Part shown: piece by piece, positions 3,501-40,759 of the stretch | Layout of the letters: each line of letters starts with the position of its first letter | Position numbering within the stretch: position 1 is the first letter of the stretch | From: a bacterium | Lineage (GTDB): Bacteria; Verrucomicrobiota; Kiritimatiellia; RFP12; CAIWXQ01 | DNA: 48,161 nucleotides | Assembly: GCA_037144015.1 (NCBI GenBank) | Contig: JBAWXQ010000001.1 | Coordinates: 1 to 48,161, forward strand | Reading direction: 5' to 3' | Program-made: the position numbers and the translations under genes | Notes under the pieces: model-generated | What the model was told of the DNA's origin: nothing | Database searches by the model: none | What the model saw: the letters and a program-made list of their open reading frames with translations, nothing else

Positions 3501-3680
3501 TACTCCCTGTTCCGGATGGATCTTTCCGGCGGCGGCGCCAACGCGTCCCTGGGAATTCAAATCGAGGGGCGCGCGGCGGAGGACGCGGCTGCGCCGCCCG
3601 TGCATCTCAACGTGAACCTGGGCGGTTCACTGGATGAGTTCTTTAATTTTGGCATGGACCTGTCACGAAAGCTGCGCTAG
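546..3680 (+). CDS. ydbH: AsmA-like intermembrane phospholipid transport protein, YdbH family (1044 aa)
   Basis: N-terminal TM anchor (LWLLLALLAAVGAA). C-terminal region resembles the YdbH/DctA-YdbH family (GRLYGRLPLTLDKGKVKLSESYLYSTPGETGSLKL). Followed by ynbE- and ydbL-like genes as in the E. coli ydbH-ynbE-ydbL operon. Confidence 0.75.
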   Translation: MPAKEDKIPDASPAPSPDLHRRLRRRLWLLLALLAAVGAATATAPTGWLPRLANALICEYLRVRDLSAIQVRVERLTPWHLRAALQFGTNDPVSRIERLEARFSPGSLWRHGVAQVDVDGGLLQFRTAPGGVSVCGLPSGLRRLSPGTSPLADEDDVPVRWQVGKLLLDNVTLRLLPPEAGAAPFDICLHASAVTDPQGETRFAISDYGRAGTLANGAFRFETGDGWLVAVLPESQVQEWLRVAQWFMTNPRFQGSDLCAGNGGATLLARMEQWRPALVQGDLSLRAATLLQDCSFTYDLRLHGVAQWEMADSLRPTITANAQVGLRMASFPAFAWSDDHEQPASASVAVKLTPRKAEWECQVAARGALSHEAAQVSVPTGSVQLPEAPVFRIDGVFTSPDLATWDGAIEAMAIVPQPRLPAGDMALACRDLVVQATATVTHSQPAVVRGRVDLSGVSCAGRGIRLAGDAGVSFGSSAPFQCANVAVTAGVASLTLPAGAVSFDKDEPLRMIASATLARAPDGRVSVCAAELNVAPQQMITGNTRLGLPDGLQLRMRRSGENPDGMTVELLPAPVAGQSGTGMAATAWVSAAAFVGRQRSSTVSCGDMTLRVTNVLFRAAELTGGVASADVTVSNDKAGGLASRSAPRIRAEISGAWLRGRNGLQLDGLQALLPLECVDREIRVAGLPGLTWRNLECQGVHLVPEGFALSLTGQTAAVQMSVGVLEANLHASLGVYADWSRAWQVAVTAEVPPSTLADTEALRGMIWRLADMDLVVTGQVAATVSALLAKDLPPSVKVSAAVGNLDVGCLSGKWQVSGLSAGLTADGPRAWRTPQGQVLTFRSARSGDLALDGGALRWQYRREALLVEQADVNWCGGSLHAFGVPYDPREQRLETVLYAERIELGRLMAQTRMLQGSGAGRLYGRLPLTLDKGKVKLSESYLYSTPGETGSLKLSNTAPIELAMEQGSIDAATRQKVSAALQNMQYSLFRMDLSGGGANASLGIQIEGRAAEDAAAPPVHLNVNLGGSLDEFFNFGMDLSRKLR

Positions 3681-3737
3681 CAGCTAGTCGGGCTTAGCCT
3701 TTTCGCTGCACAAACTTTTTGCCGACAAAGCTGCTAG
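3677..3737 (+). repeat. Family-P palindromic element, copy P1 (61 bp, CTAG at both ends)
   Basis: CTAGCAGCTAGTCGGGCTTAGCC...TGCCGACAAAGCTGCTAG. Arms pair 9+5 bp. First CTAG contains the ydbH TAG stop. Confidence 0.9.
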
Positions 3738-4406: not shown

Positions 4407-4967
4407 ATGTCCTCACCCCCGCGCCTCCTTGACCGCTTTACGCTCCTGGTCGCAACCTGGTTTGGCCTGGGGTATGCGCCGGTGGCCTCTGGAACCTTCG
4501 GCGCGCTGCCCGGCGCGCTGATCGCCTATGTTGTGGCGGTGTTGTCCCTGCACTCCGGTGCTGCGCCGGCGTGGCAGGTGGCCGGGCAGGTGGCGTTTGC
4601 GCTGGTGCTGAGCGGTCTGGCCGTTCCGGTCTGCGATGCCGCGGAGCAGATGCTGGGGACCAAGGACGATGGACGCATCGTGGCGGACGAGACGCTGACC
4701 TTTCCTGTCTGCACCATCGGCCTGCCGCTGGTGACGGCGCCATGGATGCTGGCCGTGGCGTTTGTGGTCAACCGCGTCTGCGACATCATCAAGCCGCCGC
4801 CGGCCCGCCGCCTGCAGGACCTGCACGGAGGCGTCGGCATTGTGATCGACGACTTCATCGCCTGCCTCTACGCGCTCGCCATCAACCACGCCATTTATTG
4901 GAGCGTGGCCTGGCACGGGGCATGTCTGTTTGCCTTCATCCCGGGAATGGCATCCAGCACGCCTTGA
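4407..4967 (+). CDS. pgpA: Phosphatidylglycerophosphatase A
   Basis: LVATWFGLGYAPVASGTFGALPG, DDGRIVADE and VCDIIKPPPAR motifs typical of PgpA. The track ORF from 3894 is a spurious 5' extension. Confidence 0.9.
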   Translation: MSSPPRLLDRFTLLVATWFGLGYAPVASGTFGALPGALIAYVVAVLSLHSGAAPAWQVAGQVAFALVLSGLAVPVCDAAEQMLGTKDDGRIVADETLTFPVCTIGLPLVTAPWMLAVAFVVNRVCDIIKPPPARRLQDLHGGVGIVIDDFIACLYALAINHAIYWSVAWHGACLFAFIPGMASSTP

Positions 4968-5883: not shown

Positions 5884-6000
5884 GTGATCGGTGATCGGTT
5901 GCCAGTGATTGGTAACGGGTAACCGGTGATCGGCGAATGGATCACTGCTCACGGTAACCGATCACCGATCACCGATTACTGATTACTGAGTACCGATCAC
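5884..6000. repeat. Inverted arrays of tandem heptamers: TGATCGG-type units (5885-5947) facing CCGATCA-type units (5958-5999)
   Basis: Left block reads TGATCGG TGATCGG TTGCCAG TGATTGG TAACGGG TAACCGG TGATCGG CGAATGG. Right block reads CCGATCA CCGATCA CCGATTA CTGATTA CTGAGTA CCGATCA. The blocks are mutually complementary. Confidence 0.9.
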
Positions 6001-11477: not shown

Positions 11478-11481
<4 letters not shown>

Positions 11482-11537
11482 CAGCTTGTCGGATTTAGCG
11501 CTTACCTTTACAAACTTTGTGCCGACCAAACTGCTAG
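11478..11537 (+). repeat. Family-P palindromic element, copy P2 (60 bp)
   Basis: CTAGCAGCTTGTCGGATTTAGCG...CAAACTTTGTGCCGACCAAACTGCTAG. First CTAG contains the ptsI TAG stop. Confidence 0.9.
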
Positions 11538-12783: not shown

Positions 12784-13006
12784 AAGGCGGGCGTCAGCCC
12801 GCAACCCGACAATTGCACAACTCGAGGACACTGAGAGCACCAAGAGTAACAGAGATCACAGAGAAATTCCCGACTGCGGCCGGCGATTCGGCCGCAGCAG
12901 TATGAATTCTCTCTGTGCTCTCTATCTTTCTCTGTGACCTCTGTGTCCTTCCACTTGGATGCCCAACATACACGCAAAAACGTGTATGTTGACTGGAAAG
13001 GTGCTA
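12784..13006 (+). repeat. K-family composite element, full copy K2 (~223 bp)
   Basis: Left hairpin GCGGGC-GTCA-GCCCGC. Imperfect palindrome of CACAGAG/CTCTGTG arms around CTGCGGCCG-GCGATT-CGGCCGCAG. Right hairpin ACATACACG-N6-CGTGTATGT. Alignable by eye over its full length with 34756-34981. Confidence 0.9.
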
Positions 13007-17624: not shown

Positions 17625-18512
17625 ATGAAGCCCGCCCCCGTGCATACCACCGTCGGCTTCATCGGCACCGGCGTCATGGGGCGATCCATGGCCGGGCATC
17701 TGCTGGATGCCGGGCATCACCTGCTGGTCTATAACCGGTCCCGTGACAAGGCCGGCGACCTGCTCCGGCGCGGTGCCGTGTGGTGCGACACGCCCGCCGC
17801 CCTGGCCGCCGGATGCGATGTGGTGTTCACCATCGTCGGGTTTCCCGCGGATGTGGCGGAGGTCTACCTCGGCGGGCACGGGCTGGTGGCGCATGCCCGG
17901 CCGGGCGCCGTCCTGGTCGACATGACCACCTCCAGCCCGTCCCAGGCAGAGCAGATTGCGGCCGCGGCCGCGGCGCGCGGCGTCTTCGCGCTGGATGCGC
18001 CGGTCACCGGCGGTGACAAGGGCGCACGCGAGGCCACGCTGGCCATTCTGGTTGGCGGTGACCCGGCGGCTTTTGCGCACGTGCGGCCGCTGCTGGCGCT
18101 CATGGGAAAAACGATCGTGCACCTGGGCGCGGCCGGCTGCGGCCAGCACGCGAAGCTGGCCAACCAGATCGCCATTGCCGGCACGATTCAGGGCGTGTGC
18201 GAGGCGCTGGCCTATGCGCAGGGCATGGGGCTCGATACCGCCAGGCTGCTGGATGCGATCGACAGCGGCGCGGCCGGCAGCTGGCAGCTGCGCAACGTCG
18301 GCCCCAAGATGCTGAGCGGCGACTTCGCCCCGGGCTTTTTCGTGAAGCATTTTGTCAAGGACATGACCCTGGCCCTGGATGCGGCGAGCCGCGCCGGCAT
18401 CGAACTGCCGGCGCTGAAGCTCGCGCGGGATCGCTACGCCGAGTTGGCCACCGCCGGCGGGGCGGAACTCGGCACGCAGGGGATTTTTCGCGAATACGAC
18501 GAAAAATCCTAG
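17625..18512 (+). CDS. NAD(P)-dependent oxidoreductase, 3-hydroxyisobutyrate/2-hydroxy-3-oxopropionate reductase family
   Basis: Rossmann VGFIGTGVMGRSMAGHL. DAPVTGGDKGAREATLAILVGG. KLANQIAIAG. KDMTLALD. Start at the ATG at 17625 after AAGGAAA. Confidence 0.85.
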   Translation: MKPAPVHTTVGFIGTGVMGRSMAGHLLDAGHHLLVYNRSRDKAGDLLRRGAVWCDTPAALAAGCDVVFTIVGFPADVAEVYLGGHGLVAHARPGAVLVDMTTSSPSQAEQIAAAAAARGVFALDAPVTGGDKGAREATLAILVGGDPAAFAHVRPLLALMGKTIVHLGAAGCGQHAKLANQIAIAGTIQGVCEALAYAQGMGLDTARLLDAIDSGAAGSWQLRNVGPKMLSGDFAPGFFVKHFVKDMTLALDAASRAGIELPALKLARDRYAELATAGGAELGTQGIFREYDEKS

Positions 18513-18569
18513 CAGCCGGGTCGGCAGACGATGGCTGTCTCCACACGGCTAAGCCCGACTGGCTGCTAG
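18509..18569 (-). repeat. Family-P palindromic element, copy P3 (61 bp, inverted relative to P1)
   Basis: The reverse complement starts CTAGCAGCCAGTCGGGCTTAGCC, 22/23 identical to P1. The left CTAG holds the plus-strand TAG at 18510-18512. The right CTAG holds the minus-strand TAG at 18568-18566. Confidence 0.9.
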
Positions 18570-18787
18570 AAGTTGATGTCGAGCTGCGTGGTCACCGTGT
18601 TGGCGCCGGCCACGGACTTTTTGTTGTAGACGTCGTAGCCGAGGATCACGGAAACGTTGGGCGTGAAGGCCCAGGCCACGCCGAAGTTGAGCGCGCCCAG
18701 GGCGTTCTTCCCGCCCTGGTAGTCCACGGCCAGCCAGAGACGGTCGTCGATCTCGCTCAGCGTGCGGTCCCAGGAGAGCAGGAACTT
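18566..18787 (-). pseudogene. Remnant of an outer-membrane porin gene (last ~73 codons only)
   Basis: Hand translation: KFLLSWDRTLSEIDDRLWLAVDYQGGKNALGALNFGVAWAFTPNVSVILGYDVYNKKSVAGANTVTTQLDINF-stop. Alternating beta-strand pattern with C-terminal Phe. An in-frame TGA lies at 18790-18788. An SD-ATG at 18791 is in another frame. Confidence 0.5.
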
Positions 18788-18810
18788 TCATTTTGCATCT
18801 CCTTTGGTCA

Positions 18811-18837
18811 TCGCGCTGCGGGGCAGCGCTCCTACAG
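18811..18837 (-). repeat. REP-like R-family unit R1 (TCGCGCTGCGGGGCAGCGCTCCTACAG)
   Basis: Core hairpin GCGCTGC-GGG-GCAGCGC. Same unit as at 29246-29275. Confidence 0.85.
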
Positions 18838-18859
18838 TTGTGAAGGGACAATGATGTGC

Positions 18860-18889
18860 CAACAAAGGTTTTCCGGAACGGAAAACCTA
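18860..18889 (-). terminator. Hairpin terminator candidate for amtB-glnK (AGGTTTTCC-GTTCC-GGAAAACCT, then TTGTTGG)
   Basis: 9-bp stem whose first two nt are the AG of the glnK TAG stop, followed by a U-rich tail. Confidence 0.55.
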
Positions 18890-19228
18890 GCCGATGGCCG
18901 CGCCGCCGGTTTCGCCCGTGCGCACGCGGATGCACTCGCTCATCTCGAGCACAAAGATCTTCCCGTCGCCGATCTCGCCGGTCCTGGCGCCGTTCAGAAT
19001 CGCGTCCACGGCAGCCTTGAGGTAGTCGTCGTTGACGGCGATCTCCAGCTTTACCTTCTTGAGCAGGCTGCCGGCTTCGCAGTGGCTCCGGTAGACCGTG
19101 GCGATCCCTTTCTGTCGGCCGCGCCCCATTACGTTTGACACGGTAACCAGGTGAATTTCCTTCTGCTCAAGCAGGTCCAGCACGTGATCCAGGCGGTCCG
19201 GCTGAATGATCGCAATAACGTACTTCAT
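18887..19228 (-). CDS. glnK: P-II family nitrogen regulatory protein
   Basis: MKYVIAIIQP..., T-loop GRGRQKG, C-terminal TGEIGDGKIFV...IRVRTGE. Immediately downstream of amtB. Confidence 0.9.
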   Translation of the reverse strand: MKYVIAIIQPDRLDHVLDLLEQKEIHLVTVSNVMGRGRQKGIATVYRSHCEAGSLLKKVKLEIAVNDDYLKAAVDAILNGARTGEIGDGKIFVLEMSECIRVRTGETGGAAIG

Positions 19229-19258
19229 GACCATCTCCCTCTTTTTCCACTCGTTTTC

Positions 19259-19284
19259 CGGCGGCGGCCATCCGGCCGCCGCCG
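19259..19284 (-). other. 11-bp GC hairpin in the amtB-glnK spacer (CGGCGGCGGCC-N4-GGCCGCCGCCG)
   Basis: Perfect complementarity checked base by base. Confidence 0.8.
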
Positions 19285-19287
19285 CGA

Positions 19288-19310
19288 AGGATTCGCGGAA
19301 CGCGAATCCT
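19288..19310 (-). other. 10-bp hairpin overlapping the amtB stop codon (AGGATTCGCG-TTC-CGCGAATCCT on the mRNA)
   Basis: The stem starts with the AG of the TAG stop at 19311-19309. Confidence 0.8.
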
Positions 19311-20739
19311 AGTCCAGCATGGTGTATCCGGCTTCCTTGTGCTGCGTCAGGTCGAGGCCGATGCGCTCCTCGTGCTCCGACACGCGCAGCCCGACAAGTT
19401 TGTCAACCAGCTTGAACAGGATAAACGAAACCACGGCGGAGTAGACAACGGTGACGAGCACCGCCTTGACCTGCAGCAGGAACTGGCCCGGGTTGCCGTA
19501 CAGCAGGCCGTCGCAGCCGTTGATGGCCTTGTCGGCGAAAATCCCGGTCGCCAGGGCGCCGAAAATGCCGCCGATGCCGTGCACGCCAAAGGCGTCCAGC
19601 GAGTCGTCATACCCGCATTTGTTCTTGAGGAACGTGACCGCCAGCCAGCAGCAGATCGCCGCGCCCAGCCCGATCCAGATCGCGCTCATGGGCGAGACAA
19701 AGCCGCAGGCCGGTGTGATGGCCACCAGCCCGGACACGGCGCCCGAGATCACCCCCAGCGTGGTCGCGCGGCGGTGGTAGACCCAATCGCACAGCACCCA
19801 GCCCAGGCCGGCGACGGCCGTGGCAATGTGCGTGGTGACAAAGGCGTTACCGGCCAGTCCGTTGGCCGCCAGGGCGCTGCCGGAATTGAAGCCGAACCAG
19901 CCGAACCAGAGCAGCCCGGCGCCCAGTACGGCGAACGGCAGGTTGTGCGGCGGCGAGGATGTGCCCACGCGCTTGCGCAGCAGGACCGCCGATACCAGCG
20001 CCGCAATGCCCGCGTTGATGTGCACCACCGTGCCGCCGGCGAAGTCCAGCGCGCCCGCCCTGGCGTTTCCGGCCGCGTCAAACCGCGACAGGAAGCCCCC
20101 GAGACCCCAGACCCAGTGCGCCACCGGGTCGTACACCAGCGTGGCCCAGAGCACGATGAAGAGGCAGAACGCCGAGAACTTCATCCGCTCGGCAAACGCG
20201 CCGAGGATCAGCGCAGGCGTGATCACCGCGAACATCGCCTGGAAGATCATGAAGACGGAGTGGGGGATCGTTGCGGAGTACCCCGCGAACGGATCGCCGC
20301 CCACATGCCGCAGGAAGGCCCAGTCCAGGTTGCCGATGACCCCTTTCACGTCCGGCCCAAACGCCAGCGTATAGCCGAACAGCGCCCACTGGAGCGTCAC
20401 GAGGCAGATCACGATGAAGCACTGCATGAGGATCGACAGCACGTTCTTTTTGCGGACCAGTCCGCCATAAAAGAACGCCAGGCCGGGCGTCATCAGCAGC
20501 ACCATCGCCGAGGCTGTCAGCACCCAGGCCGTGTCACCCGCGCTGAGGGTGGAAGCCGGAGCCGCCGCTGGCGCGGCAGGCGGGGCAATGACCGGTGATG
20601 TGCCCGCAACTCCGGCAGGTGCCGTTACGGCAGCAGGTGCGGCAGGCGTGGCGTCTGCACCCTGTGCCTGCACCTTTGCAGCAACAAAAAAACAAGCTAG
20701 GAAACCAGCCGCCGTCAGGATTCGGAATCGTGTTCTCAT
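19309..20739 (-). CDS. amtB: Ammonium transporter AmtB with signal peptide and Ala/Pro-rich N-terminal spacer
   Basis: GLAFFYGGLVRKKN, DFAGGTVVHINAGIAAL, GWFGFNSGSAL and DDSLDAFGVHGIGGIFG. Start ATG at 20739 or 20745, after an AAGGGGGG SD. Confidence 0.95.
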   Translation of the reverse strand: MRTRFRILTAAGFLACFFVAAKVQAQGADATPAAPAAVTAPAGVAGTSPVIAPPAAPAAAPASTLSAGDTAWVLTASAMVLLMTPGLAFFYGGLVRKKNVLSILMQCFIVICLVTLQWALFGYTLAFGPDVKGVIGNLDWAFLRHVGGDPFAGYSATIPHSVFMIFQAMFAVITPALILGAFAERMKFSAFCLFIVLWATLVYDPVAHWVWGLGGFLSRFDAAGNARAGALDFAGGTVVHINAGIAALVSAVLLRKRVGTSSPPHNLPFAVLGAGLLWFGWFGFNSGSALAANGLAGNAFVTTHIATAVAGLGWVLCDWVYHRRATTLGVISGAVSGLVAITPACGFVSPMSAIWIGLGAAICCWLAVTFLKNKCGYDDSLDAFGVHGIGGIFGALATGIFADKAINGCDGLLYGNPGQFLLQVKAVLVTVVYSAVVSFILFKLVDKLVGLRVSEHEERIGLDLTQHKEAGYTMLD

Positions 20740-20775
20740 GGACATACCCCCCTTTGTTGTTGTGGCTAGAGGTAT

Positions 20776-20791
20776 CGCAGACCACGTGCCA
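20776..20791 (-). promoter_or_regulatory. Sigma-54-type promoter candidate for amtB-glnK (TGGCACG-N4-CTGCG)
   Basis: The minus strand reads TTGGCACGTGGTCTGCGATA. GG and GC are spaced as in TGGCACG-N4-TTGCW. The GC lies ~32-38 nt upstream of the amtB start codons. Confidence 0.5.
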
Positions 20792-21007
20792 ACCATCCGG
20801 AAGCAGGCAGGCTAAAAATACATAACATGTTGTTCTGCAGTATTTTAAATAAATAATTAAGCTGTTCAAAAAAGACAACCATCAGAATGATTAGTTCTAT
20901 TATCGATGGCCAATTGCTTAAAAATACAAATATGTATCACTATTTACAGCAAACACACAAGCAGTATGTAGGCAGAAAGATTCAAGCCTGCAATATATGC
21001 AGACCAG

Positions 21008-21045
21008 GAGCGAAAACAGAAAGATTTTGCGGCAGCAAAATCTTA
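21008..21045 (-). terminator. Rho-independent terminator of the SorE-like dehydrogenase gene
   Basis: mRNA reads TAA-GATTTTGC-TGCC-GCAAAATCTT-TCTGTTTTCG. 10-bp stem beginning with the AA of the TAA stop, then a U-rich tail. Confidence 0.75.
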
Positions 21046-22526: not shown

Positions 22527-23339
22527 ATGTACACAATCCTGATCAGTCTTCTCCTGGGCATATCGGTGAGCGCAACCCTCTGGTTCACGCACGCCACACA
22601 GCACCGGGTCTGGGTGGCGGTGTGGGGCCTGCTGGGGGTTATTGCCGGCCAGATTTCGCTCGGGCTGATCCTGCGCCGCAAGATTAAAAAGGCGATGGAC
22701 GCCGTGCAGAATGTGCTCCTGTCGGGGCAGAAGAAGCTGCAGCAGAAGATCAGCCACTGGCAGATGCGGCCGCCGGGAAGCCTCAAGCAGGCGCAGCTCG
22801 AAATGGAGCGCGACCAGCGCGTCTTCATCGAACAGGCGCTGGAAGCCTCGAAAGGGATGGAGAAATTTGTCCGCTGGACGCTGATGCTGGACCGGCAGAT
22901 CGCCACCCTGCGCATGCAGCTTCACTACCAGCTCAAGGAGTATCGCAAGGTGGATGCCCTTCTGCCCAAGTGCATGTTCATGGACCCCATGACCGCGGCC
23001 ATGAAGCTCGCCCGCCTGCATGTGCGCGATGAAAGGACGGAGGCCGCGAAGTTCTTCCACAAGCAGACCCGGCGCCTGCGCTACGGGCAGGGGGCGATCC
23101 TGTACGCGCTCTACGCCTGGATGCTGGTGCAGCGGCAGGAGACGGAAGCCGCGCACAAGCTGCTGGTGCGCGCCTGCGAGAAGATGGAAAACGAGGTCCT
23201 CAAGGCCAACCGCGACCATCTGGCCAACAACCGCCTCAACCAGTTCTCCAATGCCGGCCTGTCCGAGGAATGGTATGCGCTCGGGCTCGAGCAGCCCAAG
23301 GTCAAGATGCAGCGCCAGCGCCACCCGGGGCAGTACTAG
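22527..23339 (+). CDS. Hypothetical membrane protein: two N-terminal TM helices plus a ~200-aa helical domain
   Basis: Clean 270-codon frame with no competing recognisable gene on the opposite strand. TM1 ILISLLLGISVSATLWF and TM2 VWVAVWGLLGVIAGQISLGLIL. No family recognised. Confidence 0.6.
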   Translation: MYTILISLLLGISVSATLWFTHATQHRVWVAVWGLLGVIAGQISLGLILRRKIKKAMDAVQNVLLSGQKKLQQKISHWQMRPPGSLKQAQLEMERDQRVFIEQALEASKGMEKFVRWTLMLDRQIATLRMQLHYQLKEYRKVDALLPKCMFMDPMTAAMKLARLHVRDERTEAAKFFHKQTRRLRYGQGAILYALYAWMLVQRQETEAAHKLLVRACEKMENEVLKANRDHLANNRLNQFSNAGLSEEWYALGLEQPKVKMQRQRHPGQY

Positions 23340-23364
23340 GTTTTCCGAGCCGGAAAGCCTTTGG
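23338..23364 (+). terminator. Stop-codon-embedded hairpin (AGGTTTTCCG-AGC-CGGAAAGCCT, then TTGG)
   Basis: 10-bp stem (one G-U) beginning with the AG of the TAG at 23337-23339. Same family as the glnK hairpin. Confidence 0.45.
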
Positions 23365-23855: not shown

Positions 23856-24995
23856 ATGAAACCGATTGTTGTGGCCGGGCATGTCTGTCTCGATATCATC
23901 CCCGCGTTTCCCAAGCTGGCGGCCAGCCTGGACATGCTGCTCGTGCCGGGCAAGCTGGTGGATGTCGGGCCGGCCACGATCTCCACCGGCGGCGCCGTGG
24001 CCAACACCGGCCTGGCGCTCCACCGCCTGGGCTTGCCGGTGCGGCCCGTGGCCAAGGTGGGCGATGACGCCTTCGGCCGCGCGGTGCTGGATGTTTTCCG
24101 TGCTGCGGGCGCGACCACGGATGGCCTGGTGGTCGATCCTGCGGCCTCGACATCCTACACCGTGGTGCTGAGCCCTGCCGGCTGCGACCGCATCTTTCTT
24201 CATTGCCCGAGCGCCAACGACCTGTTCGGCGCGTCGGACCTGAGCGCCGCCGTGCTGTCCGGTGCGTCCCTGCTGCACTTTGGCTATCCGCCGCTCATGC
24301 GCCGCATGTATGCCGATGGTGGCACCGAGCTCCGCGCCTTGCTGCTGCGCGCCAAGGATGCCGGGGTGACGACTTCGCTCGACCTGGCGCTGCCCGACCC
24401 GCAGTCTCCCGCCGGCCGCGCCGACTGGATGGGGATCCTACGCCAGGCCCTGCCGCTGGTGGATCTGTTCGTGCCGAGCCTGGACGAAATCGTCTACATG
24501 CTCGACCGCGGTCGCAGCGACGCCATGCGTCTCCAAACCGCCCGTGGCGTGCCGCTGGGTGGCCTCTCCGTATCCGAAGTGCGGCAGGTGGCCGATCAGG
24601 CGATCGATATGGGCGCGGCCATTGTGCTGCTCAAGCTTGGCGTGGAAGGCGTCTACTTCCAGACGACGCATGATCTGGCGCGCCTGATGGCCTGCGGTGC
24701 AACCGCGCTGGATCCCATGGCTTGGCGCGGTGTTTCCGGGCATGCGCCGTGCTATGATGTGGAAGTCGCCGGCACAACCGGGTCCGGTGATTGCACCATT
24801 GCCGGCTTCCTGGCTGCGATTTGCAAGGGGATGCAGCCGGACGACGCCGCGCGCATGGCCGTTGCCGCAGGCGCCGCGAGCGTGGAACAGCCGGACGCCA
24901 CCAGCGGCGTCCAGCCATGGGATGTGCTGAACGCACGCATGGCCGCCGGGTGGAAGCGGCGCAAGCCGCGCGTCACGTTCTCCCGAGTGGTGTAG
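23856..24995 (+). CDS. PfkB-family carbohydrate kinase
   Basis: VVAGHVCLDIIP, GGAVANTGLAL, and C-terminal anion-hole/catalytic motif GTTGSGDCTIAGFL. GGGAG SD 8 nt before the ATG at 23856. Confidence 0.85.
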   Translation: MKPIVVAGHVCLDIIPAFPKLAASLDMLLVPGKLVDVGPATISTGGAVANTGLALHRLGLPVRPVAKVGDDAFGRAVLDVFRAAGATTDGLVVDPAASTSYTVVLSPAGCDRIFLHCPSANDLFGASDLSAAVLSGASLLHFGYPPLMRRMYADGGTELRALLLRAKDAGVTTSLDLALPDPQSPAGRADWMGILRQALPLVDLFVPSLDEIVYMLDRGRSDAMRLQTARGVPLGGLSVSEVRQVADQAIDMGAAIVLLKLGVEGVYFQTTHDLARLMACGATALDPMAWRGVSGHAPCYDVEVAGTTGSGDCTIAGFLAAICKGMQPDDAARMAVAAGAASVEQPDATSGVQPWDVLNARMAAGWKRRKPRVTFSRVV

Positions 24996-25013
24996 GGGCT
25001 GTCGCCCCGTGAA
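24991..25013 (+). repeat. Small REP-like hairpin (TGTAGGGGCTGTCGCCCCGTGAA) overlapping the kinase stop codon
   Basis: Stem GGGGC/GCCCC. The TAG stop at 24993-24995 lies inside the GTAGG motif. Confidence 0.7.
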
Positions 25014-27809: not shown

Positions 27810-27831
27810 GGACGGCGGCGGAGCGCCGTCC
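27810..27831 (-). other. 8-bp GC hairpin abutting the folK stop codon (GGACGGCG-N6-CGCCGTCC)
   Basis: Starts on the mRNA immediately after the TAG at 27834-27832. Confidence 0.75.
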
Positions 27832-28335
27832 CTACCATTGTTCGACTGCCACCGACACGATGGGCTCATGCGGCATCCGGGAGAGCAGCTCGCGCACCGG
27901 GAGGTGCTGGCCGGGCAGGACCAGCGTCGGGCGCAGCTCGGCCAGAGGCTCGCAGACGAAGCGCCGCAGGTGGGCGCGCGGGTGGGGGAGTTGCAGCGCG
28001 GGCTCATCAAGCTGCAGGCCGTCGCAGCAGATCAAGTCGATGTCCATCGCGCGCGGCGCGTTGCGCTCCGCGGTGCGCGTGCGCCCCATGCGGTCCTCGA
28101 TGGCGTGTGCCGCCTCCGAGAACGCATGCACCTCCAGCCGTGTTTCCAGTACGACGATGGCGTTGAAAAACTCCAGCCCGCCGGCGGCGCGCGGCACATC
28201 CACCGGCTCGGTGACATACACGCGCGACGACGCCACGAGGCGCGTCTGTGGCAGGTGTGCCAGCGCCTCCCGCGCGCGCACAAGGTGCGCCAGCCGGTCG
28301 CCGAGGTTCGAGCCGAGTGAAAGGATGGCGTCCAT
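27832..28335 (-). CDS. folK: 2-amino-4-hydroxy-6-hydroxymethyldihydropteridine diphosphokinase (HPPK)
   Basis: LSLGSNLGDR, SRVYVTEPV, FFNAIVVLET, RNAPRAMDIDLI, LQLPHPR and RRFVCEPL. Confidence 0.9.
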   Translation of the reverse strand: MDAILSLGSNLGDRLAHLVRAREALAHLPQTRLVASSRVYVTEPVDVPRAAGGLEFFNAIVVLETRLEVHAFSEAAHAIEDRMGRTRTAERNAPRAMDIDLICCDGLQLDEPALQLPHPRAHLRRFVCEPLAELRPTLVLPGQHLPVRELLSRMPHEPIVSVAVEQW

Positions 28336-28358
28336 AGATTTTGCGGTACGCAAAATCT
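28336..28358 (-). other. 10-bp hairpin filling the dapB-folK spacer (TAG-ATTTTGCG-TAC-CGCAAAATCT-ATG)
   Basis: The stem starts with the AG of the dapB stop and ends 1 nt before the folK ATG. Same stem sequence family as the terminator at 21021-21044. Confidence 0.85.
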
Positions 28359-29148
28359 ACTCCAATCCCAGCACATGGCGCATGCTGTACAGTCCCGGCT
28401 TCTTTCCGTGCAGCCAGCGGGCGGCGCGGAGCGCGCCCATGGCAAAGGCTTCGCGGCTGCTGGCGCGGTGGGTGATCTCCACGCGTTCGCCCTCGCAGGC
28501 AAACAGCACGGTGTGGTCGCCCACGACATCCCCGCCGCGCAGGGCGTGCATGCCGATCTGTCCGCGCGGGCGTTCGCCGGTCATCCCTTCGCGTCCATGG
28601 CAGACGACATCCTTCAGCGCCACGCCACGTCCCGCGGCCAGCGCCTCGCCCAGCGCCAGCGCCGTGCCGCTGGGCGCATCCTTCTTGAAATGGTGGTGCA
28701 TTTCGACAATCTCGGCATCGTAGTCCGGCCCGAGGATGGCGGCGGCGCGGCGCACGAGGTCGAGGAGCACGTTGATGCCAAGGCTCATGTTGGCGGCCCA
28801 GACTATGGGAATCTGGTCAGCGGCGGCGCGCACGGCGCCCTGTTCCGCCTCGGTGAGGCCGGTGGTGCCCAGAACCAGCGCCTGTCGAGCGGCCACGGCA
28901 GCCGCCACGTTGGCGGGTGTTGCGGTGTGGAAGGTGAAGTCAATGACCACGTCCGCGCCTGTGGCCGGGGCGGTCGTGATCGGCAGCTGCAGCCGCGTGC
29001 CGGCCGTGAGGCCGGCGTCCAGCCCGAGCGCAGGGTGTCCCGCCGTCTCGACCGCCGCGACGATCTTCAGCTCCGGGATGCGTGGCGTGCAGCGGATCAG
29101 CATCTGGCCCATGCGTCCGGCGGCGCCCAGGATGGCAATTTTGGTCAT
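28357..29148 (-). CDS. dapB: 4-hydroxy-tetrahydrodipicolinate reductase
   Basis: KIAILGAAGRMGQ, VIDFT, GTTGL, NMSLGIN, EMHHHFKKDAPSGTA and HALRGGDVVGDHTV. Confidence 0.95.
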   Translation of the reverse strand: MTKIAILGAAGRMGQMLIRCTPRIPELKIVAAVETAGHPALGLDAGLTAGTRLQLPITTAPATGADVVIDFTFHTATPANVAAAVAARQALVLGTTGLTEAEQGAVRAAADQIPIVWAANMSLGINVLLDLVRRAAAILGPDYDAEIVEMHHHFKKDAPSGTALALGEALAAGRGVALKDVVCHGREGMTGERPRGQIGMHALRGGDVVGDHTVLFACEGERVEITHRASSREAFAMGALRAARWLHGKKPGLYSMRHVLGLE

Positions 29149-29201: not shown

Positions 29202-29275
29202 CTCGCGCTGTGGGGCAGCGCCTACAGATGCACCCGTCGGGGTTTGCAGGTAGGAGCGCTGCCCCGCAGCGCGAG
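29202..29275. repeat. Inverted pair of R-family REP units (BIME-like) between dapA and dapB
   Basis: CTCGCGCTGTGGGGCAGCGCCTACAG ... GCAGGTAGGAGCGCTGCCCCGCAGCGCGAGG. Each unit carries its own GCGCTGC/GCAGCGC hairpin. Confidence 0.85.
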
Positions 29276-30388: not shown

Positions 30389-30414
30389 CGCCATCTCGTA
30401 TGGCGGTTTTTTTT
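30389..30414 (+). terminator. Rho-independent terminator after tRNA-Leu
   Basis: CGCCAT-CTCGT-ATGGCG followed by G and T8. Confidence 0.8.
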
Positions 30415-30443: not shown

Positions 30444-30479
30444 GGCAGGCTGACGCCCGCAGTCCAACAATTGCATAAG
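30444..30479 (+). repeat. K-family left module (variant) interrupted by P4
   Basis: AAGGCAGGCTGACGCCCGCAGTCCAACAATTGCATAAG versus K2 AAGGCGGGCGTCAGCCCGCAACCCGACAATTGCACAAC. Confidence 0.75.
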
Positions 30480-30541
30480 CTAGCAGCCTGTCGGATTTAG
30501 GTTTTGCGTCTGCACACGGTTCGTGCCGACCAGGCTGCTAG
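30480..30541 (+). repeat. Family-P palindromic element, copy P4 (62 bp)
   Basis: CTAGCAGCCTGTCGGATTTAGG...GTGCCGACCAGGCTGCTAG. Not adjacent to a CDS. Confidence 0.9.
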
Positions 30542-30605
30542 TTAGTGGGACGCAACCGCCAAGCACTGGACAAGAGTGAAATACGCAACAAAAGAACAGC
30601 CGGAA
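30542..30605 (+). repeat. G-module extension (second copy)
   Basis: TTAGTGGGACGCAACCGCCAAGCACTGGACAAGAGTG...CAAAAGAAC aligns with 11538-11598. Confidence 0.8.
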
Positions 30606-30632
30606 CAATTTTTCTGTCTGTAACTGAGTCTT

Positions 30633-30847
30633 CGCAACCCGCGGGCAGCGGGTTGCACAACTAGGAGACTGTCGGCAGAAGGCCCTGGACCGATCCGAGG
30701 CCTAAGTCCGACAGCCTCCTAGGACACCGAGAGCACAGAGAGGAATAGAGGGCACAGAGGAATTCCTGTCTGCGGCCGGCTTCCCGGCCCGGGCAAGCAG
30801 AAATTGACTCTGCGCTCTCATTTGATCTCGGTGCCCTCTGTGTCCTT
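30633..30847 (+). repeat. K-family element K4 (variant) carrying nested P5
   Basis: CGCAACCCGCGGGCAGCGGGTTGCACAA-[P5]-GGACACCGAGAGCACAGAG...GGTGCCCTCTGTGTCCTT. Confidence 0.8.
30661..30722 (-). repeat. Family-P palindromic element, copy P5 (62 bp, divergent termini CTAGGAG.../...CTCCTAG), nested in K4
   Basis: CTAGGAGACTGTCGGCAGA...GGCCTAAGTCCGACAGCCTCCTAG. The interior matches the P3 orientation. Left and right terminal changes are compensatory. Confidence 0.85.
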
Positions 30848-34755: not shown

Positions 34756-34981
34756 AAGGCGGGCATCAGCCCGCAACCCAACGAATGAACACGTCAAGGA
34801 CACCGAGAGCACAGAGAACAACCGAGACCACAGAGAACTGCCTGTCCACGGCTGGCGAGCCGGCCGCAGCAGCATGAATTTCTCTCTGTGCTCTCTTGCT
34901 TTCTCTGTGGCCTCTGTGTCCGTCCACTTGGATGCTCCTACATAGACGCAAGAACGTGTATGTTGACCGGAAAGGAGCTAA
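34756..34981 (+). repeat. K-family composite element, full copy K3 (~226 bp)
   Basis: Same three-module layout and orientation as K2. The arms contain a duplicated 19-mer, CA(C/A)CCGAGA(G/C)CACAGAGAA. Confidence 0.9.
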
Positions 34982-35061: not shown

Positions 35062-37752
35062 ATGGACAAGCACTACGATCCCAAGGCCGTGGAGGCCAAA
35101 TGGTACGCCTGGTGGGAGGCGCAGGGCTTTTTTCATGCCGACCTCGCGCAGGGCGGTGAGCCGTACTGCGTGATGATCCCGCCGCCGAATGTGACCGGCA
35201 TCCTGCACATGGGCCACGCGCTCAACAACACCGTCCAGGACATCCTGGTGCGCTGGCGCCGCATGCAGGGGCGCAACACCCTCTGGATGCCGGGCACGGA
35301 CCATGCCGGCATTGCCACGCAGAACGTGGTGGAAAAGGCGCTGCGCAAGGAGGGCTCCGGGCGGCATGAACTGGGACGCGAGGCGTTTGTCGAGCGCGTC
35401 TGGTCCTGGCGCAGGGAGTACGGCGGCACGATCGTGCGCCAGCTGCGCCAGCTCGGCGCCAGCTGCGACTGGCCGCGCGAGCGCTTCACCATGGACGAGG
35501 GGATGAGCGCGGCCGTGGCCGAAGTCTTCTGCCGCCTCTACAACGAGGGGCTGATCTACCGCGGTAACTACATCGTGAACTGGTGCCCGCGCTGCCACAC
35601 CGCGCTCTCGGACGAGGAGAGCGAGCACCAGGAGACGCAGGGGAGCCTCTGGCACATCCGCTACCCCGTGTCGGACGGCACCTTTGTGACCGTGGCCACG
35701 ACGCGCCCCGAGACCCTGCTCGGCGACACGGCCGTGGCCGTCAACCCGAAGGACGAGCGCTACGCCGGCCTGCACGGCAAGACGGTCCTGCTGCCGATCC
35801 TCGGCCGCGCGCTGCGCGTGGTGGCCGACGACTACGTGGACGCCGCGTTCGGCACGGGCGTGGTGAAGATCACCCCGGCCCACGACCCCAACGATTTTCA
35901 GGTGGCGCAACGCCACGGCCTGCCGTCCCTGAACGTGATGAACGGCGACGGCACCATGAACGAGGCCGCCGGCCCGTACGCGGGCATGGACCGGTTTGCC
36001 TGCCGCAAGAAACTCGTGGCCGACCTGGAGGCCCAGGGGCTGCTGGACAGGGTCGAGCCGCACCTGCACGCCGTGGGCCACTGCTACCGCTGCGACACCG
36101 TGGTCGAGCCGCGGCTTTCGCTGCAGTGGTTTGTGCGCATGAAGCCGCTGGCCGGCGCGGCCATTGAAGCGGTCCGCGGCGGGCAGGTGCAGTTCACCCC
36201 AAAACGCTGGGAAAAGACCTACCTCGACTGGATGGAAAACATCCGCGACTGGTGCATCTCGCGCCAGATCTGGTGGGGGCACCGCATCCCGGTCTACACC
36301 TGCGGCGGCTGCCGGCACGAATGGGCCGCGCCCGCCGCGCCGGCGTCCTGCACGAAGTGCGGCGCCGGCAGCAGCGCCATCACGCAGGATCCGGACGTGC
36401 TCGACACCTGGTTCTCCTCGTGGCTCTGGCCGTTCAGCACGCTGGGGTGGCCGCAGAAAACCGCGGAGCTGGAAAAATACTACCCGTCGCACGACCTGGT
36501 GACCGCCCCGGAGATCATCTTCTTCTGGGTGGCGCGCATGATCATGGCCGGCTGCAAGTTCATGGGCGAGCCGCCGTTCCGCAACGTGTACATCCACGGC
36601 ACGGTGCGCGACGACCGCGGCCGCAAGATGAGCAAGAGCCTCGGCAACTCCATCGACCCGCTCGACATCATCGAGCAGTACAGCGCCGACGCGCTGCGCT
36701 TCAGCATGATGATGATCACGGCCACCGGCCAGGACGTCCAGGTCAACCTGGACAAGTTCGAGATCGGCCGCAACTTCGGCACCAAGATCTGGAACGCCGC
36801 GCGCTTCCTGCAGCTGCACATGGAAAAGACGGCCGGGCTCGACTGGCGCGCGCTGGCCACCGCCGCGCCGCAGCTTGATCCGGCGCGGCTCACGGATGAC
36901 GACCGCCACCTGCTGGCCAAGGGCGATGCGGCGGTGCGCCTGCTGACCGCCCACCTGGAGCAGTTCCGCTTCCAGGACGGCGCGCGCCTCCTGTACGACT
37001 TTGTCTGGAGCGACTTCTGCGACTGGTATGTCGAGTATGCCAAGGGCGACCTCTACGGCGAAGATGCCGCGCGCCGCGAGCAGGTGCTGCGCCTGATGAC
37101 GCACGTGTTTGCAAACATCCTGAAGCTGCTCCACCCCTACATGCCGTTCCTCACCGAAGAGCTCTGGCACGCCATGGGGTACGCCACGGCGGAAGAGACC
37201 ATCCTGCTGGCGCCGTGGCCGCTGTCGCTGGCAGAGGCCGCTGCGGCCGCATATGGCCTGGGCGACGCCACCACCGCCTATGTGGAGGCCAAGCACGAGC
37301 TGATTGGCGCGGGGCGCACCCTGCGCGCCGAGTACGGCATTGCTCCGGCCAAGCTGATTCGCTACGTGATCCACACCGTGGACGCGGCCACGGCGGCGCG
37401 GTTCGAGCTCGACCGGCGTCCGCTGCTGGCGCTCCTGCGCGCCGAGGCCGTGGAGATCGTCTCCGGTGGCGAGGCCTGCGGCATGCCCGGCGCGCTGGGC
37501 AAGCTCGGCACCATCTACCTGCCGCTGGCCGGCCTGATCGACGTGCCGGCCGAGGTCACGCGCGTGCGGGGAGAGCTGTCCAAGTCTCGCGGCTTCCTGC
37601 AGGGCGTCGAGTCCAAGCTGGCCAACGAATCCTTTGTCGCCAAGGCGCCGCCGCAGGTCATCGAGCAGCAGCGTGCGAAGCGGGTGGAGCTGACGGAAAC
37701 CATCGCCCGGCTGGAGCGCCTGGAGAAGACGCTGCAGGCCGTGGGATCCTAG
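35062..37752 (+). CDS. valS: Valine-tRNA ligase
   Basis: PPPNVTGILHMGHAL (HIGH), KMSKSLGN (KMSKS), the editing domain, and a C-terminal coiled coil. Confidence 0.97.
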   Translation: MDKHYDPKAVEAKWYAWWEAQGFFHADLAQGGEPYCVMIPPPNVTGILHMGHALNNTVQDILVRWRRMQGRNTLWMPGTDHAGIATQNVVEKALRKEGSGRHELGREAFVERVWSWRREYGGTIVRQLRQLGASCDWPRERFTMDEGMSAAVAEVFCRLYNEGLIYRGNYIVNWCPRCHTALSDEESEHQETQGSLWHIRYPVSDGTFVTVATTRPETLLGDTAVAVNPKDERYAGLHGKTVLLPILGRALRVVADDYVDAAFGTGVVKITPAHDPNDFQVAQRHGLPSLNVMNGDGTMNEAAGPYAGMDRFACRKKLVADLEAQGLLDRVEPHLHAVGHCYRCDTVVEPRLSLQWFVRMKPLAGAAIEAVRGGQVQFTPKRWEKTYLDWMENIRDWCISRQIWWGHRIPVYTCGGCRHEWAAPAAPASCTKCGAGSSAITQDPDVLDTWFSSWLWPFSTLGWPQKTAELEKYYPSHDLVTAPEIIFFWVARMIMAGCKFMGEPPFRNVYIHGTVRDDRGRKMSKSLGNSIDPLDIIEQYSADALRFSMMMITATGQDVQVNLDKFEIGRNFGTKIWNAARFLQLHMEKTAGLDWRALATAAPQLDPARLTDDDRHLLAKGDAAVRLLTAHLEQFRFQDGARLLYDFVWSDFCDWYVEYAKGDLYGEDAARREQVLRLMTHVFANILKLLHPYMPFLTEELWHAMGYATAEETILLAPWPLSLAEAAAAAYGLGDATTAYVEAKHELIGAGRTLRAEYGIAPAKLIRYVIHTVDAATAARFELDRRPLLALLRAEAVEIVSGGEACGMPGALGKLGTIYLPLAGLIDVPAEVTRVRGELSKSRGFLQGVESKLANESFVAKAPPQVIEQQRAKRVELTETIARLERLEKTLQAVGS

Positions 37753-37795
37753 CAGCTTGCCGGGCGCAGCCTTTGCGCTTCAAAACTTTGTATGG
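37749..37795 (+). repeat. Family-P element, degenerate copy P6 (left arm and loop only)
   Basis: CTAGCAGCTTGCCGGGCGCAGCCTTTGCGCTTCAAAACTTTGTATGGAG. The CTAG holds the valS TAG. The right arm is missing. Confidence 0.75.
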
Positions 37796-38538
37796 AGGGC
37801 TCGACGATGTCTGCATCAGACCACGCAAGCGTACACGGATCGCCCGGGGAAGGGGCGCGGATGGCGGGCATTGCCCGCGCGATCTTCCCGCTGCTGGTGG
37901 CGCTGTTCTGCATCGGCTATGTGGCCGGTGCCGCCTCCGGCGCCACCATCAGCGGCTGGGCCGCGGGCACGATTCTGCTGCTGGCCGGCGTGCTGCTGCT
38001 GCTGGGCGCCACGTCCGGATCCCGGCGGATCGCGGCGTTTTTCACGGGCGCGGCCGGCGAGGAGATTGTGGCGCGCGAGCTCGCGCGCCTGCCGGCCGGC
38101 TACCACGTGTTTCATTCGCTGGACGCGGGCGGCGGCTTGCTCATGTGGCGCGGCGGTGACATTGACCATGTGGTCGTCGGGCCCACCGGCGTGTTTGCCG
38201 TTGAGACCAAGAACTGGCGCGGCCCGGTGACGCTGGCGGATGGGCGCCTGCTGCTGGCGGGCGCGGCGCCGCGCCGCGAGCCGCTGGCGCAGGTGCGGCA
38301 GGCGGTTTCGGCGCTGCAGGTGCGGCTGGGGCGCGCAGGCATCTACCATGTGGACGTGGTGCCCGTGGTCTGCTTTGCCAGCGATTGCCTTGCCGCGGCC
38401 AGCCAGGCCGACGGCGAGGCCGTGGTCTGCAACGCCGCCTCGCTGCTGGATGTGCTGACGGATGAACGCCGGCGCGCCGGCGCGCGGGTGGATGTGGCGG
38501 GTGTGGCCAGCGCGTTGAGCTCGACCCGCGCCGGATGA
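37792..38538 (+). CDS. NERD-domain protein with two N-terminal TM helices
   Basis: TMs IFPLLVALFCIGYVAGAA and AAGTILLLAGVLLLLGA. NERD core GEEIVARELARL...GGDIDHVVVGPTGVFAVETKNW. Alternative start at 37807. Confidence 0.7.
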   Translation: MEGSTMSASDHASVHGSPGEGARMAGIARAIFPLLVALFCIGYVAGAASGATISGWAAGTILLLAGVLLLLGATSGSRRIAAFFTGAAGEEIVARELARLPAGYHVFHSLDAGGGLLMWRGGDIDHVVVGPTGVFAVETKNWRGPVTLADGRLLLAGAAPRREPLAQVRQAVSALQVRLGRAGIYHVDVVPVVCFASDCLAAASQADGEAVVCNAASLLDVLTDERRRAGARVDVAGVASALSSTRAG

Positions 38539-40724: not shown

Positions 40725-40725
40725 A

Positions 40726-40740
40726 TTTCCGTTCCGGAAA
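40726..40740 (+). other. Short hairpin 1 nt after the prc stop (TTTCCG-TTC-CGGAAA)
   Basis: 6-bp stem sharing its core with the hairpins at 18866 and 23338. Confidence 0.5.
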
Positions 40741-40759
40741 AAGCGCTTGGGGGTGTGGC

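Follow-up and report, generated by a model that had tools for sequence, protein, structure and literature searches.

Repetitive extragenic palindromic (REP) elements stabilise the mRNA that lies upstream of them, and Liang, Rudd and Deutscher reportedly found in 2015 that E. coli REPs within ~15 nt of a stop codon lower translation. The attC sites of integrons are imperfect palindromes that begin with, or inside, the stop codon that ends the preceding open reading frame (ORF), and they keep a constant orientation relative to it. Amongst mobile elements, insertion sequences (ISs) of the IS1182 family reportedly home in on palindromes located at the ends of genes (PMC5678879), and MITEPsy1, a miniature transposable element with inverted repeats (MITE) of IS5 type, duplicates CTAG or YTAA (PMC3189936). 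Here we describe a 48,161-nt stretch of DNA from a freshwater Kiritimatiellia genome (66% GC; hereafter the window), in which stop codons are embedded in palindromes of two classes: class A, or P, of ~60 nt, and class B, short palindromes of 21-25 nt situated at stops. The pattern arises from two classes of element and not from a single device, and the basis of the register with the stop codon differs between the classes; we put at roughly 0.6 the probability that the pattern is explained by these two classes occupying the TA of TAG and TAA stops.

Stop codons within palindromes

A codon-usage model trained on the window gave 41 complete coding sequence (CDS) ends (TAG 23, TGA 12, TAA 6). Perfect hairpins with a stem of at least 10 bp and a loop of 3-4 nt occur six times in the whole 48 kb, and four of the six begin at nucleotide 1-2 of a stop codon, i.e. 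those of glnK, amtB, a zinc-dependent alcohol dehydrogenase (ADH) and dapB. Perfect stems of at least 8 bp beginning at stop nucleotides 1-4 are found at 5/41 CDS ends, as against a mean of 0.02 (maximum 1) in 1000 dinucleotide shuffles of the 3′ flanks and 0-1 in eight shifted registers; these are the controls that a first-pass annotation of the same DNA had named for its proposal of a register shared by many gene ends, and on the window they place that register far beyond chance. The gene for a 270-aa conserved protein has a sixth stop hairpin, with one G.U position, and five further stops (those of a ydbH-like gene, ptsI, a dehydrogenase gene, a porin remnant and valS) lie inside the arms of the P palindrome. 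Element-bearing ends are limited to TAG and TAA (11/29, against 0/12 for TGA; Fisher p=0.018), the comparison of stop types having likewise been suggested beforehand. Around a quarter of the genes, then, end in a TAG or TAA that supplies the first base pairs of a palindrome.

The sequences listed in the first-pass annotation stand as written, whilst its description of them as all perfect does not: the overlap at a PfkB-kinase stop has 5 bp, the hairpin of the 270-aa gene contains one T.G position, and the P cases are long-range imperfect stems with bulges, of which the one at valS has lost its right arm and folds no better than shuffled sequence. Nor do the stems fall into several unrelated families, as had been supposed, but into an IS1182-family MITE and one related, degenerate family of short palindromes. 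The observation is borne out, and it has more structure than that annotation supposed. That hairpins are simply common in GC-rich intergenic DNA, so that some touch stops, is compatible with the PfkB (5 bp) and folK (GC-rich) cases taken alone; for the set as a whole this explanation is refuted, with a negligible residual probability, both by the control counts and register given above and by composition, the stop-overlapping stems containing A/T whereas the other intergenic hairpins are GC-rich and scattered. The short hairpins in question are as follows.

18866-18889, minus strand: class B, glnK, T-AGGTTTTCCG-TTC-CGGAAAACCT, 10 bp; stop TAG 18887-18889
19288-19311, minus strand: class B, amtB, T-AGGATTCGCG-TTC-CGCGAATCCT, 10 bp; stop TAG 19309-19311
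21021-21045, minus strand: class B, zinc-dependent ADH, T-AAGATTTTGC-TGCC-GCAAAATCTT, 10 bp; stop TAA 21043-21045; U-rich tail
23337-23360, plus strand: class B, 270-aa conserved protein, TAG stop; 10 bp with one T.G, perfect only as RNA
28335-28359, minus strand: class B, dapB, TAGATTTTGCG-TAC-CGCAAAATCTA, 11 bp including T1-A; flanks TA...TA
19259-19284, minus strand: second hairpin of the amtB-glnK spacer, GC-rich, 11 bp
24993-25008, plus strand: weak 5-bp GC hairpin overlapping the PfkB-kinase stop, alone indistinguishable from chance
27810-27834, minus strand: 8-bp GC-rich hairpin immediately after the folK stop TAG 27832-27834; of the ordinary GC-rich type, not class B
40722-40745, plus strand: class-B-like degenerate hairpin TAA-ATTTCCG-TTC-CGGAAAA, 6 bp, after a tail-specific protease gene; out of register (offset 4)

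P as a MITE of the IS1182 family

The P element is a MITE of ~60 nt that belongs to an IS1182-family insertion sequence. Copies are 55-63 nt long and non-coding; the window has six, and the metagenome-assembled genome (MAG) ELA687 has ~50 in 154 kb. The copies of the window, with the gene remnant that ends in one of them, are these.

3678-3737, plus strand: P-type MITE, forward; the ydbH-like gene (1016-1044 aa) stops at its first TAG (3678-3680)
11479-11537, plus strand: P-type MITE, diverged; ptsI stops at its first TAG (11479-11481); TTTT follows the copy
18510-18569, between convergent genes: P-type MITE; left TAG (18510-18512) is the dehydrogenase stop, and the porin remnant, on the minus strand, stops at the right CTA (18566-18568)
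18569-18781, minus strand: porin remnant, 5′-truncated, the last 71 codons of an OMP-like (outer membrane protein-like) gene of 240-260 aa
30481-30540, plus strand: P-type MITE away from any stop, after tRNA-Leu
30662-30721, minus strand: P-type MITE with the terminal inverted repeat variant TAGGAGAC/TAGGAGGC, adjoining an GCAACCCGC hairpin at 30634-30657
37750-37800, plus strand: decayed P-type MITE at the valS stop (37750-37752); left arm and core recognisable, right arm gone, no hairpin

In Pseudomonas and Mesorhizobium plasmids, insertion sequences of the IS1182 family end in the same TA-GCAGCCTGTCGGACTTAG as the arms of P. A BLAST search of plasmids with one P copy found the same ends bounding a 1.57-kb element whose sole gene is annotated 'IS1182 family transposase'; these elements occur in P. 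aeruginosa and other plasmids, agree with the P ends at 19/20 nt or better, and in four Pseudomonas plasmids have the common boundaries C/TAGCAGCC...GGCTGCTA/G (boundaries marked by slashes). With this transposase as query, tblastn found homologues adjoining P-type ends at 64% identity in the Mesorhizobium plasmid L064 and at 37-50% identity in L039, L009 and L028, and since transposases as diverged as these keep the same ends, the ends are part of the element rather than of a target. Two other origins were considered and rejected. An IS630/Tc1-mariner parentage, which a TA duplication in CTAG had suggested, disagrees with the IS1182 type of the adjoining transposases, and the notion that P is merely a target of ISs disagrees with the finding that five ISs, whose transposases are 37-64% identical, end in the same 16-20 nt and contain no inner inverted repeat.

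A pattern scan (TAGCAGC-NN-GTCGG...CCGAC...CTGCTA), taking one genome per species, located P palindromes at no fewer than 61 loci. The matches listed include Pseudomonadota (Pseudomonadaceae, Betaproteobacteria, Halieaceae, Marinobacter, Xanthomonas, Azoarcus), Planctomycetota, Verrucomicrobiota (Verrucomicrobiaceae, Victivallales), Chloroflexota (Anaerolineae), a cyanobacterium and unclassified MAGs; the TA-GCAGCCTGTCGGACTTAG arms are conserved across phyla and the interior varies. P differs in presence between orthologous ends, as a mobile element would: it is present at the stop of the 270-aa gene in L125 and absent in the window and L127, and at the dehydrogenase stop it is present in the window and absent in L127 and L137. 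A search for population polymorphism in metagenome contigs recovered divergent relatives alone, with no clean empty site. No description of the P sequence was found in the searchable literature (a sequence search matched only mouse primers), and a 2024 review of prokaryotic MITEs makes no mention of IS1182, CTAG or stop codons. The element, spread as it is over many phyla, appears to be undescribed.

CTAG as the probable target of P

Flanks were analysed with the core alone (C-N-GTCGG...CCGAC) as search key. The base before TAG is C in 69/76 P copies and the next base outward is random; flanks of the form C-TA...TA-G are found in ~90% of copies, and no occupied site was obtained together with a matching empty one whose flanks could be aligned to it. 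The exceptions (A-TA-T, C-TA-A and T-TA-G) would be better matched by an element that enters at TA, duplicates these 2 bp and prefers CTAG than by a 4-bp duplication of CTAG, although by analogy with MITEPsy1 the latter may also apply to P; as to the transposition chemistry, i.e. TA versus CTAG duplication, we infer it from such flanks.

The tetranucleotide CTAG itself is scarce in the window, with 22 occurrences against 149 expected from base composition, of which none lies inside a called CDS and ten are at stops; most of the others mark the distal end of a P copy. (The window is likewise poor in TA and in TAG.) Stops of the form C-TAG bear an element in 8/10 cases (five P, three class B), as against 2/13 for other TAG stops (p=0.003), and in 36/63 of the P copies listed a coding-looking ORF stops in frame at one or both of the terminal TAGs, nine of these copies having such an ORF at both. 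The 270-aa gene ends in TAC-TAG in three lineages: in the window the stop bears a class B hairpin, in L125 it bears P, and L127 lacks both and has another hairpin ~16 nt downstream; the retention of TAC-TAG with a different element or with none indicates that TAG is the target and not the product of insertion.

With G as its first base and C as its last, the element on insertion turns C-TA-G into C-TAG...CTA-G, so that TAG is rebuilt on each strand. We propose that P would integrate at the TA of C/TA/G and duplicate this TA, its first base G and last base C restoring an intact TAG at both flanks. In a 66% GC genome nearly without CTAG except at C-TAG gene ends, the stop codon would be a landing site that is both available and protein-neutral. 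Convergent genes sharing one CTAG would each retain a stop, as with the dehydrogenase gene and the porin remnant, for which the empty site would have been a single CTAG with two overlapping convergent stops.

Orientation of P and the units that contain it

P is asymmetric in the window, in contigs L093 and L098 (from the same lakes) and in MAG ELA687 (whose folK is 74% identical), its left arm, GTCGGACTTAG, being full and its right one shortened. Where a P copy touches a single called stop, the full arm lies beside that stop in 25/25 cases, and a further three genes have their end at the CTTAG inside a forward P copy. In ELA687 three variants of the P arm (GCAGCC, GGAACC and GGAGAC) all precede one module of ~100 nt, which consists of TTG-GCAACCCGCGGATAGCGGGTTGC and then a promoter-like (sigma-70-like) TTGCGA-N16-CAGAAT facing downstream, and which contains a 9-bp hairpin, e.g. 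in L012 at 4673-4840. The window has a composite of P and the ~100-nt module at 30589-30723. The composite of the MITE at 30662-30721 and its adjoining GCAACCCGC hairpin is as a whole 94% identical to contigs L093 and L116.

A larger composite follows tRNA-Leu at 30479-30723, comprising two P-type MITEs and the GCAACCCGC hairpin, with 94-98% identity to pieces of L093 and L116; such identity in unrelated contigs of the same study indicates a recently spread unit.

Class B, one family of small palindromes

Class B hairpins share one form: T, then A-R-(R/W)-TTT(T)-S-C-G, a 3-4-nt loop and the mirror arm. Besides the five in the window (glnK, amtB, the 270-aa gene, dapB and ADH), they occur at glnK in L127, at amtB in L130 and L140, and as copies in L088, L098, L018 and L049. 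A census of 361 kb of related DNA (stems of 9-11 bp, one mismatch at most, TTT in the 5′ arm) returned 16 TTT/AAA-type hairpins, 17 with the window amtB hairpin, all of them single and 12-13 beginning at -1..+2 of a stop. Stop A2 forms the outermost pair in 9-10/12 copies; at glnK the stop contributes its A2 and G3 to the first two pairs. Folded as RNA, the glnK hairpin has -13 kcal/mol (z -4.9) and that of amtB -15 kcal/mol (z -3.8). The dapB hairpin extends exactly from the stop (28357-28359) to the ATG of folK, the A of which is the palindrome's last base. Read in the sense direction, the loop is TTC, TGC, TAC or TGCC (T-N-C) in 10-11 copies and the reverse, G-N-A, in none (~7 vs 0 when orthologous sets are counted once). 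Loop polarity relative to the gene, in stems that are themselves palindromic, suggests either a strand-specific role or a strand-specific origin.

Orthologous ends were compared at amtB-glnK loci of relatives chosen by protein identity, their hairpin content being ignored. The order is glnK-amtB in most bacteria; here it is amtB then glnK (18887-20796, minus strand), and the same in all relatives fetched. The window (AGGATTCGCG), L130 (AGATTTCGCG) and L140 (TAGTTTTCGC), whose AmtB proteins are ~92-93% identical over the mature region, all have the amtB stop hairpin. Its pairs 4 and 5 read G-C/A-T/T-A and A-T/T-A/T-A, so that both sides change and no pair is broken, and the second, GC-rich hairpin of the amtB-glnK spacer is also kept in L130 and L140 with one mirrored change. 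Elsewhere the amtB end has only the 5′ arm and then a REP-like unit (L125, L134), REP-like doublets (L127, L129) or neither (L131, L141, L137). The glnK hairpin is common to the window and L127, with a mirrored G>A and C>T, and is absent from eight other relatives. Elements at orthologous gene ends thus appear to turn over quickly.

One arm, GGTTTTCCG, recurs at unrelated positions: at glnK and the 270-aa gene of the window (5′ arms identical), in L088 between convergent stops (TAA, CTA), in L098 abutting P, and in L093 8 nt after a TAG. A class B origin by insertion may be supposed from such recurrence. We rejected the idea of a high-copy dispersed repeat after scanning metagenomes for GGTTTTCCG-N3-CGGAAAACC, where nearly all of the 60 contigs were unrelated and without the TA prefix; just ~4/60 matches to the exact class B core were related contigs. 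In an Rfam search, only four tRNAs of the window reach the gathering score, and nothing meaningful appears in 18400-19400 at E up to 1.

Roles and alternative explanations

Beyond the observed identity, target, register, conservation and orientation of the elements, every RNA function considered for the hairpins is read from sequence. Class B would be a lineage-specific REP-like family with its outermost pair at stop A2. Since pairing has been maintained over evolution and the hairpins are oriented relative to the gene, class B most likely acts as RNA, and probably as hairpins acting on the upstream cistron which are not canonical terminators. At the 3′ end of that cistron a hairpin could act as a barrier to decay, or could impose a pause at termination until melted by the terminating ribosome, and the dapB-folK hairpin would couple stop and restart.

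The first-pass annotation had instead taken all stop-overlapping hairpins, P included, as intrinsic terminators lacking a U-tract, with a register set by selection, a reading that we find weak and consider unlikely. It can draw on the stable RNA folds (class B -13 to -15 kcal/mol, z -3.8 to -4.9; intact P copies -20 to -30 kcal/mol), on the orientation of both classes relative to the gene, and on the U-rich tails at the ADH hairpin (the only class B hairpin flagged by a terminator scan) and the ptsI copy of P; moreover, terminator-like consensus sites are not enriched in the window (18 found against 15.3 +/- 5.5 expected), so that some other signal must end transcripts. Most class B tails are, however, not U-rich (amtB, dapB, the 270-aa gene, L130 and L140), and the amtB and dapB hairpins stand between co-directional genes of apparent operons, 75 and 0 nt from the next start. 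In L127 glnK and L125 enolase the stop-overlapping hairpin is followed ~35 nt later by a canonical stem and U-tract terminator, and a canonical terminator directly after tRNA-Leu (30389-30413; 6-bp stem and T8) establishes that the organism does use standard terminators. The elements are, furthermore, swapped or absent at orthologous ends of close relatives, and in E. coli the repression of a terminator is nearly complete when it is placed within a few bp downstream of a translated gene (PMC4824070). A direct action on translation, whereby sequestration of the stop slows termination or tunes read-through, or the next cistron requires a terminating ribosome to melt the stem, would account for the first pair at stop A2, for the stop-to-start span of the dapB hairpin and for the restriction to TAG and TAA, the stops read by release factor 1. 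Nevertheless the dapB hairpin is alone in spanning stop to start, no cistron follows closely after glnK, ADH or the 270-aa gene, and a requirement for TA explains the choice of stops equally well; we regard this explanation as rather improbable.

A different possibility is that class B has no host function, its members being either mini-MITE or REP-like insertion palindromes, or stem-loop targets that IS1182-family elements replace foot to foot, in which case P would inherit its register from them. The IS1182-family element IS1272 is reported to seek out and replace inverted repeats of 22-30 bp, with arms of 9-12 bp, downstream of genes and without target duplication (PMC5678879), and class B hairpins are exactly such a target. 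Consistent with this, where the ends of the 270-aa gene and of the ADH gene have class B in the window, L125 has P at the former and half a P at the latter, the two classes abut in L098, identical GGTTTTCCG arms stand at non-orthologous genes, and TA...TA flanks occur in 5/11 class B copies. Set against it are the low copy number of the exact class B core noted above, the perfect pairing of the amtB hairpin with its mirrored changes across ~8% AmtB divergence, an orientation bias of the loop that is unexpected for palindromic insertion, and the flanks, strictly C-TA...TA-G for P and not so for class B. We judge this explanation tentatively possible, and P may partly inherit its position from hairpins of the class B type.

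Several observations weigh against the reading that we prefer, i.e. of two element classes occupying the TA of TAG and TAA stops. No IS1182 transposase was found by tblastn in the window or in the Kiritimatiellia loci compared. The 25/25 orientation bias of P is not predicted for a DDE transposon entering a palindromic target, where insertion should occur either way, and implies that selection removes one orientation or that the unit or its target is larger and asymmetric; hairpin stability does not account for it, as forward and reverse copies have equal RNA folds (-25.4 and -25.6 kcal/mol), nor does a back-up in-frame stop, as there are stops in two frames either way round. For class B, the family alignment (96% of cells paired, 6/10 pairs changed on both sides, a state reached by 0/500 shuffles) is built of rows picked as palindromes, which makes its covariation count descriptive, and the unbiased orthologue sets consist of 3 and 2 sequences. 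The class is also patchy (glnK in 2/~10 and amtB in 3/~10 orthologues), and this, together with the recurrence of the GGTTTTCCG stem at non-orthologous genes, fits mobility at least as well as conserved function. Class B flanks are TA...TA in 5/11 copies and TA...TT in 4/11, by which a TA duplication is not established. Lastly, a run search returned no RNA sequencing runs matching the window sequence, the RNA role of class B being inferred.

It is conceivable, if improbable, that in this Kiritimatiellia clade a stop codon with a hairpin starting from its second base forms one RNA-level gene-end signal, which would link translation termination to mRNA 3′-end formation or decay, IS1182-type MITEs being kept only in the orientation that supplies it. 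Were this so, it would explain both the 25/25 orientation of P and the T-N-C loops, and it might contribute to high TAG usage.

TAG usage

TAG is the commonest stop in the window (23/41), and accounts for 63/143 stops (44%) in the related loci L125-L141, 174 kb that were not chosen by element content, where its share is 40% once element-bearing ends are removed. The use of TAG in bacteria is described as low and unresponsive to GC, a 'TAG paradox' (PMC9348620), and the 44-56% share in this clade is unusual for bacteria of 60-69% GC. The elements do not supply these codons, as orthologues have TAG with or without an element and 40% TAG remains after removal; they do not create the bias today, and it is the bias that supplies their landing sites. 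The clade is accordingly a useful outlier to the TAG paradox.

Genes and other repeats of the window

The gene names of the first-pass annotation agree with Pfam and NCBIfam profile matches, namely for AmtB, the zinc-dependent ADH, the PfkB kinase, DapB, HPPK/FolK, the 3-hydroxyisobutyrate-type dehydrogenase, PtsI and ValS, with a P-II/glnK context. For AmtB the best named homologues, at 79-85% identity over the full query, are from MAGs labelled Kiritimatiellia or Kiritimatiellales. Sequencing runs containing the window sequence are freshwater and lake metagenomes, and one metagenome contig of 1.9 kb is identical to 18729-20597 of the window. The porin remnant was also correctly recognised: its last 71 aa match an OMP-like protein of relatives at 71-87% identity, and such a protein, of 240-260 aa, follows glnK in four of them (L129, L130, L137 and L141). 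The glnK hairpin and a REP-like unit stand where its 5′ part is missing.

This REP-like unit, GTAGGAGCGCTGCCCCGCAGCGC, has a GTAG-type head and a 7-bp GC hairpin; it stands singly after the glnK hairpin at 18806-18838, is also found in L127, and forms an inverted doublet after dapA at 29202-29275. The last ten codons of the dehydrogenase gene (GIFREYDEKS; 18479-18508) contain a class-B-like palindrome, GGATTTTTCG...CGAAAAATCC, that ends at the stop; extension of the C-terminus into a hairpin was considered and rejected, the tail being conserved in orthologues and hence ordinary coding sequence. Long imperfect inverted repeats of CACAGAGA/GGACACAGAGG-type units occupy 12825-12949 and 34798-34921, with scattered copies after genes at 13004 and 30900 and similar motifs in L098, L026 and L129. 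Downstream of kdsB, at 5884-6000, is a cluster of GTGATCGGT/GTAACGGGT short repeats with a 43-nt imperfect inverted repeat. The longest perfect hairpin of the window, of 13 bp (TGCAAGTCCGGCG-CCGT-CGCCGGACTTGCA; 575-604), is not at a stop and stands either at the beginning of the ydbH-like gene or upstream of it.

Comparison with known systems

Target specificity and purifying selection together can make a selfish element resemble designed syntax: a MITE that seeks CTAG and starts with G survives only on TAG stops in a GC-rich genome, where it is invisible to the protein. The strict orientation of P in this one clade and the oriented amtB hairpins, which have retained their pairing, may nonetheless hint at a real role at the RNA level. 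For annotation pipelines, such elements account for many gene-end features that look like terminators and for many of the small spurious ORFs there.

P has the terminal inverted repeats of IS1182-family ISs. It differs from IS1272 of staphylococci, which is reported to replace stem-loops unrelated in sequence, in that it is ~60 nt long and non-coding, is flanked by C-TA...TA-G (IS1272 having no duplication) and sits on the stop itself. With the IS5 and IS630 elements that target CTAG or YTAR it shares the CTAG target, small size and terminal inverted repeats; unlike theirs, the transposases adjoining P are of IS1182 type, and the rebuilding of TAG on both sides does not feature in descriptions of IS5/IS630 elements. 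Integron attC sites are also distinct from both classes, which by eye have no RYYYAAC/GTTRRRY core sites, lack an integrase context and occur at housekeeping chromosomal genes.

Class B resembles REP elements as short palindromes at the 3′ ends of unrelated genes and inside operons, whereas its stems are A/T-rich, there is no unpaired GTAG head (the context being N-TAG or N-TAA with A and G/A paired), and the copies are few (17 in 361 kb) and all single, without arrays like bacterial interspersed mosaic elements (BIMEs). The GTAGGAGCGCTGCCCCGCAGCGC units of the window, which are closer to typical REPs, are distinct from it. No gene for a REP-associated tyrosine transposase (RAYT) turned up in general Pfam and NCBIfam scans of the window proteins, which included no search aimed at RAYTs. 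Like intrinsic terminators, class B places a stable hairpin right after the CDS; unlike them it mostly has no U-tract, is in some cases intra-operonic and can have canonical terminators downstream. Stop-proximal terminators are discussed in the literature for species with runaway (uncoupled) transcription. At its core, therefore, the system is of a known kind, a target-specific MITE together with REP-like hairpins. Its new features appear to be a stop-rebuilding IS1182-type MITE that crosses phyla, a strict orientation relative to the gene, and small stop-anchored hairpins that keep their pairing.

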